Part shown: positions 34,721 to 58,923 of the stretch, piece after piece
How positions within the stretch are numbered: the stretch's first letter is position 1
Layout: each line of letters opens with the position of its first letter
NCBI RefSeq assembly: GCF_019748365.1
Contig: NZ_JAIEPN010000035.1
Location: 46,911 to 110,910 of the forward strand
Reading direction: 5' to 3'
Length of the DNA: 64,000 bases
From: Novosphingobium sp.
GTDB taxonomy: Bacteria > Pseudomonadota > Alphaproteobacteria > Sphingomonadales > Sphingomonadaceae
Program-made: the position numbers and the translations under genes
Notes under the pieces: generated by a model
The model's database searches: none
The model's input: the letters and a program-made list of their open reading frames with translations, nothing else
What the model was told of the DNA's origin: nothing

Positions 34721-36193
34721 GTGACCACTCGCCAGAAACCGCAACAGACCTTCTGGGGGCTGTGGAACGTGAGCTTCGGCTTCTTCGGCATACAGCTCGC
34801 CTTCGGGCTGCAGAACGCCAACATCAGCCGCATTTTCCAGTCGCTCGGCAGCAGCGTCGACGAACTTGCCTTCCTGTGGATCGCCGGACCGGTGACGGGG
34901 CTGATCGTGCAGCCGCTGATCGGGCATTATTCGGACCGCACCTGGGGCCGGTTCGGGCGGCGGCGGCCCTACTTCGTGGCGGGCGCGGTGCTTTCGGCAC
35001 TGGCACTACTGGGCCTGCCGCAGGCGGGCGTGCTGCTGCTGGCCGCCGCATTCCTGTGGCTGCTCGATGCCTCGCTCAATATCGCGATGGAGCCGTTCCG
35101 CGCCTTCGTGGGCGACATGACGCCCGATGACCAGCGCGCGCAAGGTTTTGCGCTGCAGACCTGGTTCATCGGCGCGGGCGCGGTGATCGGCAGCCTGCTG
35201 CCGGCGGTTTTCACGCACTTCGGCATTGCGAACACGGCGCCTGAAGGCGTCATCCCCGATTCCGTGCGGCTCAGCTTCATCATCGGCGCTGCCGCGATGG
35301 TGCTGGCGGTGGCGTGGACCGCCTTCAGCGTGCGCGAATACAGTCCCGAGGAAATGGCAGCGTTCAACGGCGAACATGTCCACACTGCGCAGCCTGGGCA
35401 GGCGCTGGTCTATTCGCCGCGCGGGCCGATGTGGCTGCTGATCGGCGCGGGTCTGCTTACGATTGTGCGCGAGCTGGATCTCGACAAGCAGCTCTATGTG
35501 CTTGGCGGCGGGCTGGTCGCCTTCGGCACGGCGCAGATCGTGCTGCGCGCGACAAAAGCCAAGGGCGCGCTGGCGGAGATCATGAGCGACCTTGCACAGA
35601 TGCCTGCGCAGATGCGGCAACTGGCGGTGGCGCAGTTCTTCACCTGGACCGGACTGTTCATCCTGTGGATCTACGCGACCCCGGTCGTCACCAAGTACGC
35701 CTTCGGAGCGAACGACACCACCGGCGCGGCCTATAATGCGGGCGCGGACTGGGTCGGCGTGATGTTCGCGTTCTACAATGGTGTCGCAGCGCTCGCCGCG
35801 TTCCTTCTCCCCGTGCTGGCAAAGCGCATCGGCAATGCGCGCACGCATGCGCTGTGCCTGCTTGGCGGCGGCGGCGGCCTCCTGATGCTGCTTGTGCTGC
35901 GCGACCCGTGGCTGCTGCTGCTGCCGATGGTCCTTGTCGGCGTGGCCTGGGCCTCGATCCTCGCGATGCCCTACGTGATCCTGACCCGCGTGCTGCCGCC
36001 ACACAAGTTCGGCATCTACATCGGCGTGTTCAACATCTTCATTGTCGTGCCGCAGCTGATGGTCGCGACGATCATGGGCGGGGTGATCCGCAGCTTCTTC
36101 CCGACCGAGCCCAAGTGGACGATGCTGGTGGGCGCCGTTGTCATGGCCGCCGCCGCGCTCGCCATGCTGCGCGTGCGCGAAGAGCAGGCCTAA
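34721..36193 (+). CDS. MFS sugar transporter (MalY/sucrose-maltose GPH-like)
   Basis: NVSFGFFGIQ, VQPLIGHYSDRT, GRRRPY, MEPFRAFVGD, FNIFIVVPQ. Confidence 0.88.
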   Translation: MTTRQKPQQTFWGLWNVSFGFFGIQLAFGLQNANISRIFQSLGSSVDELAFLWIAGPVTGLIVQPLIGHYSDRTWGRFGRRRPYFVAGAVLSALALLGLPQAGVLLLAAAFLWLLDASLNIAMEPFRAFVGDMTPDDQRAQGFALQTWFIGAGAVIGSLLPAVFTHFGIANTAPEGVIPDSVRLSFIIGAAAMVLAVAWTAFSVREYSPEEMAAFNGEHVHTAQPGQALVYSPRGPMWLLIGAGLLTIVRELDLDKQLYVLGGGLVAFGTAQIVLRATKAKGALAEIMSDLAQMPAQMRQLAVAQFFTWTGLFILWIYATPVVTKYAFGANDTTGAAYNAGADWVGVMFAFYNGVAALAAFLLPVLAKRIGNARTHALCLLGGGGGLLMLLVLRDPWLLLLPMVLVGVAWASILAMPYVILTRVLPPHKFGIYIGVFNIFIVVPQLMVATIMGGVIRSFFPTEPKWTMLVGAVVMAAAALAMLRVREEQA

Positions 36194-37026
36194 TACTGGA
36201 AGGCCGCCTCGGGCACGGCGTCCATCAAGGCATCATTGCGCTCGCGCATCTTCTCGCGGAATTCGCCGTGGGTGACTATGTAGAGCCGGTTTGCGAGAAT
36301 GCCTTCGGTGACAATCTCACCCACCGTTTCGGGATCCATCCAGTCGTTGCCCGGCGGGCGCTCCAGCAATGTCGCCTCGCTCTGCCGGAAACCGCTGCCT
36401 TCGCGCAAATGGGCGGGGCGGTTTAGCGCGGCTTCGTGGATGTTGGAGCGCACGAAGGCGGGGCACAGAACGGACATGCCGATGCCATTCCCCGCCAGTT
36501 CCTCGCGCATGTTTTCCGACAAGTTCAGCACCGCGGCCTTGCCCGCCGCATAGATCGCGAAATTGGCCGGCATCCGCACGGCTGCGGCCAGCGAGGAGAC
36601 GTTGACGACATGCCCGCCGCGCCCGTGCGCGATCATGCGCGGGAGGAAGCTCTGGAGGCCGTTGATCACGCCGCCGAGATTGACGCCGAGCCCGTAATCC
36701 CAATCGGAATAGCCTGCCTCGAGCACCGGTCCTTCGACACCGACGCCGGCGTTGTTGACGAGAATGTCGATCCCGCCGAGTTCGATATCCATGCGCTCCG
36801 CGACGGCGGCGAACGCGGCGCGGTCGGTCACGTCGAGCGTGAGGGCGGCGACGCTGCTGGCAAAACCGGCCTCGCGGATTTCCACGAGCGCGCGGTCGAT
36901 GTGGTCGGGCCTCAGGTCGGCGATGACGACAAAGGCGCCGCGTTTCGCCAGCGCCTTGACGATGCCGAGCCCGATGCCGCTGGCGCCGCCGGTGACGAAG
37001 ACCCGCTTCTCGTGGAAACTGCGCAT
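36190..37026 (-). CDS. SDR oxidoreductase, LigD/LigL/LigO-like C-alpha dehydrogenase family
   Basis: TGGASGIG, NNAG, VNLGGVINGLQSFLPRMIAHGRGGHVVNVSS, YAAGK, VRSNIHEAALNRP, resembling LigD as recalled. Confidence 0.75.
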   Translation of the reverse strand: MRSFHEKRVFVTGGASGIGLGIVKALAKRGAFVVIADLRPDHIDRALVEIREAGFASSVAALTLDVTDRAAFAAVAERMDIELGGIDILVNNAGVGVEGPVLEAGYSDWDYGLGVNLGGVINGLQSFLPRMIAHGRGGHVVNVSSLAAAVRMPANFAIYAAGKAAVLNLSENMREELAGNGIGMSVLCPAFVRSNIHEAALNRPAHLREGSGFRQSEATLLERPPGNDWMDPETVGEIVTEGILANRLYIVTHGEFREKMRERNDALMDAVPEAAFQY

Positions 37027-58084: not shown

Positions 58085-58923
58085 CGATTTCCCCCGAGCA
58101 TGCCGCACGGCTGAAGGACGCCGCCGGCTACATCTTCGACATGGACGGCACGATTGCCCTGGGCGATGCGCAGAGCGGAGGCCACAATGCCCTCCCACAT
58201 GCCATCGGGCTGCTGGACGCGCTGAAGGCGCGCGGCACGCCCTATGTCGTCTTCACCAATGGCACGGCCAAGCCGCCCGCGGCTTATGCGGCGTCGCTGC
58301 GCAAGGCTGGGTTTGCGGTTGAGGACGGGCAGATGCTGACGCCCTCCTCATCGACCGCCGACTGGCTCAAGCGCACCGGCGTGGGCAAAGTGCGCGTGCT
58401 GGGCAATGCGGGCTGCCGCGCGCCGCTCGATGATGCGGGGCTCGATGTGGTGGGACCGGACGTGGCGGCAGAGGGCGTCGAGGCGGTCTACACCGGCTGG
58501 TTCCGCGAGTTCGATTTTCCGGCGCTGGAAGCCGCCTGCGATTCCTTGTGGAAGGGCGCCAGGCTGCTCACCGCCAGCAACGTCCCGTTCTTCGCCACCG
58601 CCGCTGGACGCGCGATTGGCGCAAGCTATCCGATCAATGCCATGCTGACGGCGATGACCGGCAAGCGTCCGCGCATTCTCGGCAAACCCTCGCGCGTCGC
58701 GTTCGATACGGCGCGGCTGCTGATGGGGCTGCCCCGCAGCGCGGCGAAGCAGATGGTCGTGGTGGGCGATGACCCGGCGCTCGAAATGCGCATGGCAAAC
58801 GCAGTTGGCGCGCTGTCAGTGGGCATGGCGACGGGCGTCATGACCAAAGGCGCCGAACTGCCCGAGCGCGACCGGCCGGCGGTGCTGCTCGACAGCCTCA
58901 AGCCGCTGCTCGACCTGCTCTAA
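58081..58923 (+). CDS. HAD-IIA (NagD-like) phosphatase
   Basis: FDMDGT, VFTNGT, LGKPS, VVGDD; GTGA overlap with CT gene. Confidence 0.88.
   Translation: MTISPEHAARLKDAAGYIFDMDGTIALGDAQSGGHNALPHAIGLLDALKARGTPYVVFTNGTAKPPAAYAASLRKAGFAVEDGQMLTPSSSTADWLKRTGVGKVRVLGNAGCRAPLDDAGLDVVGPDVAAEGVEAVYTGWFREFDFPALEAACDSLWKGARLLTASNVPFFATAAGRAIGASYPINAMLTAMTGKRPRILGKPSRVAFDTARLLMGLPRSAAKQMVVVGDDPALEMRMANAVGALSVGMATGVMTKGAELPERDRPAVLLDSLKPLLDLL

Follow-up and report, generated by a model that had tools for sequence, protein, structure and literature searches.

The 64,000-nucleotide window analysed here (Novosphingobium sp., assembly GCF_019748365.1, contig NZ_JAIEPN010000035.1, positions 46,911 to 110,910 of the forward strand; GC content ~65%) encodes housekeeping genes, Entner-Doudoroff genes, a starch-utilisation locus and a block of 23 genes predicted to act on aromatic ketones. 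This block comprises 18 consecutive minus-strand genes (g1 to g18; 36190-53437) and a divergent operon of five plus-strand genes (p1 to p5; 53582-58923) (Table 1). Open reading frames (ORFs) were called with guidance from the GC content at third codon positions (GC3) and by inspection of Shine-Dalgarno (SD) sequences at the starts, domains were assigned with Pfam, supplemented by searches against NCBIfam and PDB sequences, and export leaders were judged by eye from the translations, with no predictor run. From g1 to g8 the Pfam assignments are a short-chain dehydrogenase/reductase (SDR), a protein with no match, a zinc-dependent medium-chain dehydrogenase/reductase (MDR), an SDR, a metallo-beta-lactamase (MBL), FAD_binding_4/FAD-oxidase_C, cytochrome c and a further SDR. 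Those of g9 to g18 are Rieske plus VanA_C, three Cupin_7 proteins, a TonB-dependent receptor (TBDR), AraC, a major facilitator superfamily (MFS) transporter, Glyoxalase_4, MDR and IclR, while p1 to p5 encode UPF0261, a biotin carboxyl carrier protein (BCCP), a biotin carboxylase (BC), an HMGL/PYC_OADA carboxyltransferase (CT) and a HAD protein. Overlaps of 4-13 nt couple several genes translationally: on the minus strand g8-g7-g6-g5-g4 and g16-g15, on the plus strand p1-p2 and p3-p4-p5. The 18 minus-strand and five divergent plus-strand genes described in an earlier note, which was made from the sequence without database searches, are recovered by GC3-guided calling and their families are upheld by Pfam, although several of its longest-ORF starts had to be moved (the first SDR spans 36190-37026, not 36190-37293). 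The relay of outer-membrane uptake, periplasmic oxidation and cytoplasmic conversion proposed in that note is also plausible, and the compartment assignments are reasonable because the flavoprotein shows an apparent twin-arginine (RR) leader and the cytochrome c, the MBL protein and the receptor show apparent Sec-type leaders.

Table 1. Genes and sequence motifs of the 23-gene block, in positional order.
Feature	Coordinates	Strand	Basis of assignment
g1, classical SDR, 278 aa, peripheral	36190..37026	-	Pfam adh_short; start refined by SD
g2, conserved 'hypothetical' protein, 211 aa, peripheral	37037..37672	-	predicted NTF2/ketosteroid-isomerase-like fold
g3, Zn-dependent MDR alcohol/polyol dehydrogenase, core, counterpart of Saro_1874	37696..38703	-	Pfam ADH_N + ADH_zinc_N + Glu_dehyd_C; synteny
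g4, SDR of optional flavocytochrome module	38716..39474	-	Pfam
g5, secreted metallo-beta-lactamase-fold hydrolase	39462..40349	-	Pfam Lactamase_B; Sec-type leader
g6, VAO/PCMH-family flavoprotein, nsVAO type	40346..41965	-	PDB 9FFK/9FGE E 1.7e-251, 70% identity
g7, small c-type cytochrome, g6 partner	41962..42279	-	Pfam Cytochrome_CBB3; CGYCH; Sec-type leader
g8, SDR, core, counterpart of Saro_1873	42276..43115	-	Pfam; synteny
g9, Rieske/VanA_C oxygenase, counterpart of Saro_1872 'DmtS'	43148..44218	-	Pfam; DdmC E 6.8e-65; position and size
g10, DAD-like cupin, paralogue type 2	44231..44764	-	PDB DAD E 1e-19, 34% identity to DAD
g11, DAD-like cupin, paralogue type 2	44778..45314	-	Pfam Cupin_7; alignment
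g12, probable 2,4'-dihydroxyacetophenone dioxygenase (DAD) orthologue	45329..45862	-	PDB 4P9G E 2.5e-83, 64% identity
g13, TonB-dependent outer-membrane receptor	45927..48491	-	Pfam Plug + barrel; Sec-type leader
g14, AraC-family regulator	48623..49561	-	Pfam AraC_binding_2 + HTH_18
g15, MFS transporter, counterpart of Saro_1866	49588..50853	-	Pfam MFS_1
g16, VOC/glyoxalase-fold protein	50850..51398	-	Pfam Glyoxalase_4; PDB 3GM5 E 2.6e-10
g17, MDR (quinone-oxidoreductase-like) dehydrogenase, counterpart of Saro_1864	51475..52488	-	Pfam; NCBIfam PIG3-like match below cut-off
motif TTTCAC-N4-TGCAA, second copy	52564..52578	.	76 nt upstream of g17
g18, IclR-family regulator, divergent from marK, counterpart of Saro_1863	52610..53437	-	Pfam HTH_IclR + IclR_C
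motif TTTCAC-N4-TGCAA, putative IclR operator	53493..53507	.	iclR-marK spacer
p1, MarK, UPF0261 hydroxyphenyl-ketone kinase (predicted)	53582..54820	+	PDB 9MPY E 1.7e-222, 83% identity
p2, AcvC, biotin carboxyl carrier protein	54817..55263	+	Pfam Biotin_lipoyl; ETMKL motif; size and position match Saro_1861
p3, AcvD, biotin carboxylase	55281..56615	+	Pfam Biotin_carb_N, CPSase_L_D2, Biotin_carb_C
p4, AcvE, carboxyltransferase	56612..58084	+	Pfam HMGL-like + PYC_OADA
p5, AcvF, NagD-type HAD phosphatase	58081..58923	+	Pfam Hydrolase_6 + Hydrolase_like; 4-nt overlap with p4

The plus-strand operon (module A) matches Saro_1862-1858 of N. aromaticivorans DSM 12444 in gene order, gene sizes and domain set and is, by these measures, the orthologue of marK-acvCDEF, described in 2025 as a single transcription unit (PMC12624787). 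The structure 9MPY is MarK, the 'multiple aromatic kinase' of that strain (PMC12624787), and in its alignment with p1 all ten key residues are identical (the D-T-K nucleotide motif together with the seven acetovanillone-binding residues G195, T196, H219, F283, I285, H304 and H348). Directly downstream of the kinase gene lies a three-part biotin carboxylase (BCCP with a biotinyl-lysine motif, BC and CT), encoded by overlapping or closely spaced genes. Wild-type DSM 12444 does not grow on acetovanillone and its MarK carries a crippling Glu16, where Lys is reported for all other Novosphingobium; MarK E16K phosphorylates acetovanillone with ATP and supports growth on acetovanillone, guaiacylpropanone and 4-hydroxyacetophenone, while the MarK-E16K strain loses its growth on acetovanillone when acvC or acvF is deleted (PMC12624787). 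The MarK encoded in the window natively carries Lys at the equivalent position, from which the enzyme should be active without prior evolution. In the characterised pathways it is the phosphorylated ketone that the biotin carboxylase uses (PMC9618137), a NagD-type phosphatase (AcvF and HpeD are both NagD-like) then frees the aroyl-acetate, and VceAB or HpeEF convert the aroyl-acetate to benzoate (SYK-6 preprint; PMC9618137). In the Novosphingobium strain, MarK would phosphorylate the phenolic hydroxyl of acetovanillone, 4-hydroxyacetophenone or guaiacylpropanone at the expense of ATP, AcvCDE would carboxylate the acetyl carbon of the phospho-ketone, AcvF would remove the phosphate to leave the aroyl-acetate, and VceAB/HpeEF-type enzymes encoded outside the window would yield benzoate and acetyl-CoA. 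No AMP-binding, thiolase or thioesterase-type gene for this last step was found among the window ORFs scanned, and genes of the VceAB/HpeEF type may be located elsewhere in the genome, as in N. aromaticivorans. Through this sequence of phosphorylation, carboxylation and dephosphorylation, module A very probably strips acetyl and propanoyl side chains. The earlier note had perceived the carboxylation route, but assigned no role to the UPF0261 kinase or the HAD phosphatase and left the system unidentified; its analogy with Aromatoleum EbN1 reflects genuine homology, HpeCBA being ~50% identical to XccBCA (PMC9618137).

The core of the minus-strand genes (module B, to which the receptor g13 is also assigned and which is placed under the AraC regulator) is formed by three Cupin_7 proteins of 177-178 aa each (g10 to g12), a Rieske oxygenase (g9) and two dehydrogenases (g3 and g8). 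All three cupins retain an H-x-H...H pattern in register with His76, His78 and His114 of DAD, which are given as its iron ligands in PMC4219425. On the strength of the alignment g12 is likely to be DAD itself, while g10 and g11, 60% identical to one another and only 32-34% identical to DAD (E 1e-19), represent by sequence a distinct conserved paralogue type. The closest solved structure to g9 is that of the dicamba O-demethylase DdmC. Deletion of the gene for its N. aromaticivorans counterpart DmtS (Saro_1872) together with ligM slightly changed 3-O-methylgallate demethylation; DmtS was never purified and has no reductase gene near its own (PMC8091115). The Rieske enzyme g9 is most likely an O-demethylase.

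VanA-type Rieske enzymes also include methyl hydroxylases, and Dke1 is a 3-His cupin. Both facts are in keeping with a serial scheme in which the oxygenases operate within the Acv pathway, the Rieske enzyme hydroxylating the acetyl methyl group of acetovanillone or 4-hydroxyacetophenone to provide a ketol for DAD (the Alcaligenes 4HAP route), or the DAD-like cupins performing a beta-dicarbonyl cleavage of the unstable aroyl-acetate from AcvCDEF in the manner of Dke1 and replacing VceAB. Such a scheme would account for the missing VceAB/HpeEF-type gene among the window ORFs scanned and for the retention in the cupins of the 3-His iron site of DAD. Also in its favour, vanilloyl-acetate spontaneously decarboxylates back to acetovanillone (SYK-6 preprint). 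It is nevertheless highly unlikely, given that wild-type N. aromaticivorans possesses both the Rieske and DAD genes and cannot use acetovanillone, and that O-demethylation is both the activity of the Rieske protein's closest solved relative and its sole genetic phenotype. Furthermore, the MarK paper counted only genomes also holding vceAB/hpeEF homologues anywhere (PMC12624787), which implies that such homologues are common among marK-holders.

The associations of the cupins and dehydrogenases in other organisms provide the context for the preferred assignment of module B to side-chain cleavage. Relatives of DAD were sought in one genome per species; 200 were found (loci numbered with the prefix L) and the best 80 loci were examined for synteny. 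In Paraburkholderia and Chromohalobacter, cupins of the g10 type are encoded in compact cupin-SDR-Zn-MDR operons accompanied by a regulator and an MFS gene, and in a Streptomyces the gene for such a cupin overlaps a GCV_T (LigM-family) gene. In Emcibacter the DAD gene belongs to an AraC-MFS-CoA ligase-DAD-MDR group with RPE65 and SnoaL genes nearby, while that of Polymorphum is grouped with a thiamine diphosphate (ThDP) enzyme, an SDR and an aldehyde dehydrogenase. Among DAD orthologues that are ~68% identical, the ThDP enzyme gene (TPP_enzyme_N/M/C) is immediately upstream in L083 (Polymorphum gilvum) and ~5.7 kb upstream in L085. The ThDP enzyme family includes makers and breakers of alpha-hydroxy ketones, which hints at another source of DAD substrates. 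An Erythrobacter SG61-1L SDR, whose gene directly follows two DAD genes and precedes that of a benzyl-alcohol dehydrogenase, has weak, stereoselective C-alpha (benzylic hydroxyl) dehydrogenase activity on guaiacylglycerol-beta-guaiacyl ether (PMC4651090); g8 can be compared with this SDR through gene context only. NCBIfam returned only polyol-dehydrogenase-like matches below the cut-off for g3. The N. aromaticivorans pathway for the Hibbert ketone GP-1 and for G-diketone has a gap at the step of side-chain removal; LigL (Saro_1875), which reduces both compounds in vitro, is encoded immediately adjoining the cluster.

In the proposed mechanism the module B dehydrogenases would bring side-chain diols and diketones to the alpha-hydroxy-ketone state, and the Fe(II) cupins would cut the C(=O)-C(OH) bond with O2, yielding benzoate and formate from C2 substrates, or acetate- or glycolate-type acids from C3 substrates such as GP-1. 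A substrate range of module B extending beyond that of DAD is conceivable, if somewhat short of probable. More tentative, and on balance doubtful, is the proposal that DAD, the DAD-like cupins, the SDR and the Zn-MDR together perform an O2-dependent, ATP- and CoA-independent C-alpha/C-beta cleavage of lignin-derived aryl-C3 ketols (GP-1 and oxidised arylglycerols), in which the cupins would divide the work according to the side chain (H, CH3 or CH2OH) and, in sphingomonads, operate beside MarK/Acv, which would serve ketones lacking a beta-hydroxyl. Were this true, the cupin core would be the missing enzyme of the G-diketone/GP-1 pathway of N. aromaticivorans.

Embedded between g8 and g3 is the flavocytochrome module (module C). 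The flavoprotein g6 begins MTVSLDRRSLLGAGA, an RR (Tat-type) leader with the motif DRRSLL as judged by eye. It matches chain A of p-cresol methylhydroxylase (PCMH; 1DII) with E 2.2e-165 and the overlapping cytochrome g7 finds its best PDB match in PchC, chain C of the same enzyme (E 7.5e-10). The g7 gene overlaps both g8 and g6 by 4 nt. The PchC-like cytochrome, the RR leader and the gene overlap together point to an exported flavocytochrome c dehydrogenase. The flavoprotein itself is 70% identical to nsVAO, a non-covalent-FAD Novosphingobium enzyme of the eugenol-hydroxylase clade, which was studied solely as a leaderless recombinant and for which the authors left a native cytochrome acceptor possible (PMC7617285). 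As in nsVAO, g6 carries Thr/Val at the flavin N5 site, while Ala and Leu occupy the positions of nsVAO L409 and L418 and Tyr and His for FAD linkage are absent; the residue that binds FAD covalently (8-alpha-O-tyrosyl) in PCMH (Tyr384) and eugenol hydroxylase (EUGH; Tyr381) was not found in the g6 alignment. These features suggest that g6 is PCMH-like in its working but belongs to the non-covalent nsVAO subgroup. The closest relatives of nsVAO (84-87%) occupy the same locus in Chakrabartia-like genomes.

The periplasmic flavocytochrome would oxidise the C-alpha position of para-alkyl and para-hydroxyalkyl phenols, and after import the SDRs would form ketones or ketols feeding module A or module B. 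That module C, where present, yields benzylic alcohols from such phenols in the periplasm is given an even chance. The SDR g4 accompanies g6 and g7 in related loci, and the MBL gene g5 overlaps the stop of g6 and the start of g4, its product matching the NCBIfam 'Vmh family MBL fold' below the cut-off (E 1e-52). In L029, L068, L035 and L080 the secreted MBL protein and g4 are kept and the flavoprotein and cytochrome genes are gone; the MBL-SDR pair may consequently have a role separate from the flavocytochrome.

The examined DAD loci, the best 80 of the 200, show identities to g12 of at least 82% throughout, and almost all of them derive from Novosphingobium and close relatives. When the 23 window proteins were mapped onto these loci a single collinear layout emerged, acvFEDC-marK and, divergently, IclR-MDR-VOC-MFS-AraC-TBDR-DAD-cupin-cupin-Rieske-SDR-(cyt c-flavoprotein-MBL-SDR)-MDR. 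Of the 52 loci whose 10-kb flanks are complete, 49 (94%) carry marK no more than 10 kb from the DAD cluster, with order and orientation unchanged; the TonB receptor gene g13 is present in all 52 (100%), as is the VOC gene g16 (100%), g3 and g8 occur in 96% each and the Rieske gene g9 in 81%. The flavocytochrome module is found in ~50% and is optional, and g1/g2 occur in ~20% (g1 in ~23%). N. aromaticivorans DSM 12444 has the locus gene for gene (Saro_1858-1875), minus the flavocytochrome module. Order and orientation are kept across Novosphingobium, Chakrabartia, Sphingomonas and Parasphingopyxis down to ~50-70% protein identity, while the flanks vary. A horizontally inserted genomic island was considered and rejected: GC content is flat across the cluster boundaries, the only tRNA gene in the window is at 6658 with none at the cluster borders, no integrase, transposase or other mobility gene occurs among the flank ORFs scanned (border repeats were not searched), and the maltose-type MFS gene borders the cluster in related species too. 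The 'island' of the earlier note, which was said to be 'inserted', is instead a conserved chromosomal locus that is not strain-specific.

Two regulators are encoded within the block. The 15-nt motif TTTCAC-N4-TGCAA has two matches in the window against 0.06 expected, and a match is present in 42 fetched loci, where mapped (the window, L042 and L047) in the marK-iclR spacer; the second copy, upstream of g17, is kept in close relatives. This distribution makes the motif a candidate IclR operator. The IclR protein probably controls the marK-acv operon and, in this clade, probably also the MDR-VOC-MFS operon via the shared box; with the motif as its operator the two would constitute one regulon. 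The AraC protein g14 has an architecture that is also encoded beside cupin operons in strain MBES04 (MBENS4_1157), Emcibacter and Paraburkholderia, and by analogy with its MBES04 counterpart, which seems to do the same, it would control the receptor-DAD operon. Induction of the MBES04 DAD operon is 3-45 fold with a beta-O-4 dimer and 8-89 fold with a lignin preparation; hydroxypropiovanillone elicits the best response from its promoter, which 2,4'-dihydroxyacetophenone activates as well (PMC10866074). Public RNA runs containing the N. subterraneum locus were uninformative: their conditions are coded, and they comprise low-depth contigs whose depth stays flat at 1-12 along the locus. The supplements of PMC5892560 do not list the cluster genes.

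Collectively, the gene content suggests with moderate probability that the locus removes the C2 and C3 side chains of para-hydroxyphenyl (lignin-type) ketones to give benzoates, via modules A, B and C. The earlier note had proposed parallel routes for the same ketones, which the genetics of N. aromaticivorans contradicts for acetovanillone: DSM 12444 has the DAD cluster yet does not grow on this compound, and deletion of acvC or acvF abolishes the growth conferred by MarK E16K. Modules A and B are therefore not redundant for acetovanillone and are read as complementary, ketones without a beta-hydroxyl entering carboxylation and those with one, we infer, dioxygenolysis.

Several observations weigh against this interpretation. 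The functions of the window proteins are assigned by homology and inference, g3 and g8 resemble sugar or polyol dehydrogenases, the ORFs scanned include no reductase or ferredoxin that could serve the Rieske protein, and the Chromohalobacter cupin triad adjoins a carbohydrate-type porin. The enzyme nsVAO is slow (0.29 per s with vanillyl alcohol) and does not use bovine cytochrome c (PMC7617285), while MBES04 does not consume hydroxypropiovanillone (PMC10866074), an inducer that consequently need not be a substrate. In the RNA-seq contrast of protocatechuate versus glucose (supplement of PMC8612281), the N. aromaticivorans orthologues show no induction. The linkage of modules A and B is moreover lineage-specific, as the MBES04 DAD operon is not located beside marK, and DAD and g10-type cupins outside the sphingomonads, including those of other phyla, occur without acv genes. 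The adjacency may thus reflect shared descent, and the marK-acv operon and the DAD/cupin cluster could be independent regulons for unrelated substrates, neighbours by vertical inheritance rather than partners. The separate IclR and AraC regulators agree with this alternative, as does the finding that, among the genes tested, growth of N. aromaticivorans on acetovanillone needs only the marK allele, acvC and acvF (PMC12624787). It is considered unlikely, however, since order and orientation persist across four genera while the flanks change, and the closest characterised relatives of both gene sets act on para-hydroxyphenyl ketones.

A further alternative assigns the cluster to other para-hydroxyphenyl compounds of fresh and drinking water, such as bisphenol A metabolites, alkylphenols and tyrosol- or lignan-type plant phenols. 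The presence of window DNA in drinking-water, wastewater and biofilm metagenomes accords with such substrates, the sphingomonad bisphenol A pathway gives both 4-hydroxyacetophenone and 4-hydroxyphenacyl alcohol, and MarK and HpeCBA also take the non-methoxylated ketone (PMC12624787; PMC9618137). The occurrence of an O-demethylase-type Rieske gene in 81% of the loci, the induction of the MBES04 operon by lignin fragments, and the proximity of the Emcibacter DAD gene to RPE65 and SnoaL genes, which are typical of lignin-dimer catabolism, nevertheless make a non-lignin role distinctly unlikely, and lignin-type ketones remain the preferred substrates.

Aside from the three modules, the block encodes peripheral and accessory proteins. 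The SDR g1 holds the place of Saro_1875 (a LigL homologue) in N. aromaticivorans, a match by position alone. The adjoining g2 has no Pfam (E up to 1), NCBIfam or PDB sequence match, while its AlphaFold (AF2) model (pLDDT 88.6) retrieves ketosteroid isomerase (KSI)/MonBI folds in Foldseek with E ~2e-5. The 'SnoaL-like' label of the earlier note consequently holds at the fold level only, the similarity being visible in the model and not in any sequence family. Homologues of g2 number 1703, of which the 120 listed are 69-100% identical and none has a Pfam domain; the family consists of 'hypothetical' proteins of ~203 aa in Sphingomonadales, Parvularculaceae, Steroidobacteraceae and others, with many invariant His, Asp, Glu and Trp residues. 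It is a candidate for an uncharacterised enzyme family deserving separate study; the genes around it in a Steroidobacteraceae genome (aldo-keto reductase, F420H2_quin_red) offered no clear clue. NCBIfam matches for the SDRs, MDRs, MBL protein, VOC protein and receptor are generic and sub-threshold only. The receptor g13 is 71-77% identical in the closest relatives (L001-L016, L029), where most of the genes around it are 87-100% identical. In L009, L016 and L029 an allele with 91-93% identity is found, and there is a local GC dip to 0.61-0.62; this looks like an allelic replacement of the receptor inside a conserved operon.

Both ends of the cluster converge with their neighbours through 4-nt stop-codon overlaps, g1 with the maltose-type MFS gene (36190-36193) and acvF with a small HNH-like ORF (58920-58923), which leaves no space for terminators. 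The latter ORF (58920-59237), called an HNH gene in the earlier note, has an HNH match that is weak and sub-threshold (E 0.004). Scans for promoter and terminator consensus sequences returned fewer matches than in shuffled sequence. Elsewhere in the window, the starch/maltodextrin locus (22189-36193) encodes an esterase, a GH97 enzyme, two GH13 alpha-amylases, LacI and MFS proteins, with a tryptophan-halogenase-like gene (28638-30374) beside a TonB receptor of 1025 aa; the Entner-Doudoroff genes glk, edd, pgl and zwf are located at 17182-22077. A 632-aa minus-strand ORF (11643-13541) has a coding-type GC3 of 0.85 and an unusually high local GC of 0.70-0.72, with no Pfam match at E <=0.01. DNA words of the segment 43148-46000 recur at a share of 0.7-1.0 in drinking-water, wastewater, biofilm and freshwater metagenomes, and the window's own DNA was found in DNA metagenomes only. 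The closest genome match for this segment is a lake metagenome-assembled genome (L001; DAD 100%), followed by N. sediminis and N. fuchskuhlense (99%).

About half of the cluster is already known, and it does not constitute a categorically new system. The combination, unfamiliar to the earlier note, exists in the model strain DSM 12444 and in the 49 loci with marK nearby, and its pieces have been published separately: MarK/Acv in 2022-2025, DmtS in 2021, the MBES04 operon in 2023 and nsVAO in 2025. A dioxygenase is nowhere mentioned in the main text of the MarK paper (PMC12624787), the nsVAO paper makes no mention (PMC7617285) of an operon, gene cluster, signal peptide or Tat, and a literature search by locus tag found no study of Saro_1864-1871, 1873 or 1874. 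On this basis the conserved physical union of the pieces and the optional flavocytochrome insertion appear to be undescribed in the searchable literature. Industrial lignin depolymerisation yields acetovanillone, Hibbert ketones and alkylguaiacols as major products, which limit biological funnelling, and natural Novosphingobium strains would, judging from the residue at position 16, offer an active-type MarK beside a ready-made set of transporters and regulators. The orthologues of Saro_1869-1874 are candidates for the missing side-chain cleavage step of GP-1 and G-diketone. The locus may also supply a physiological context for nsVAO, that of a predicted exported flavocytochrome with its own cytochrome c, a point left open by the structural study.

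Among characterised systems the closest to the plus-strand operon is marK-acvCDEF of DSM 12444, with the same five genes, order and sizes, divergent from an IclR gene, and a MarK that is 83% identical; the two differ in that wild-type MarK of DSM 12444 has Glu16 where the window protein has Lys. The acvABCDEF genes of Sphingobium sp. SYK-6 and hpeHICBAD(EF) of Rhodococcus rhodochrous GD02 share the sequence of phosphorylation, biotin-dependent carboxylation and dephosphorylation, with BCCP, BC, CT and a NagD-type phosphatase. They employ a two-subunit phenylphosphate-synthase-like kinase (AcvAB/HpeHI), in contrast to the single UPF0261 kinase of the window, and the GD02 cluster carries a CoA ligase and a hydrolase (hpeEF) with no equivalent among the window ORFs scanned. 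The anaerobic 4-ethylphenol pathway of Aromatoleum aromaticum EbN1 similarly combines a flavocytochrome (PchCF-like), alcohol dehydrogenases (the SDRs Hped/ChnA) and a biotin carboxylase (XccABC) for the 4-hydroxyphenyl ketone. Its cluster presumably also contains thiolase/CoA-ligase genes. Unlike the window locus, which adds O2-dependent enzymes, it has kinase genes of the hpeHI type (PMC9618137) and lacks DAD, Rieske and TonB receptor genes.

The DAD of Alcaligenes sp. 4HAP (PDB 4P9G/5BPX) has the same length as g12, is 64% identical and shares the histidines at His76/78/114, whereas g12 heads a tandem of three cupins, after which come the Rieske gene, an SDR and an MDR, and g10 and g11 are ~32-34% identical to it. 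Cluster G-II of MBES04 (MBENS4_1161-1158 and AraC 1157; PMC10866074) comprises DAD, a DAD-like 'hypothetical' protein, an SDR, a GroES-type Zn-ADH and AraC, which corresponds to the core of module B, but it has one additional cupin rather than two and lacks the Rieske and TonB receptor genes as well as a neighbouring marK-acv operon; the MBES04 pchFC genes are located elsewhere, in cluster G-I (PMC10866074). Finally, nsVAO (PDB 9FFK/9FGE; PMC7617285) is 70% identical to g6 and shares with it Thr/Val at flavin N5 and the absence of a covalent-FAD residue. It was characterised as a leaderless recombinant oxidase, whereas g6 has an RR leader and its gene overlaps that of a PchC-like cytochrome c, features that point to a periplasmic dehydrogenase.

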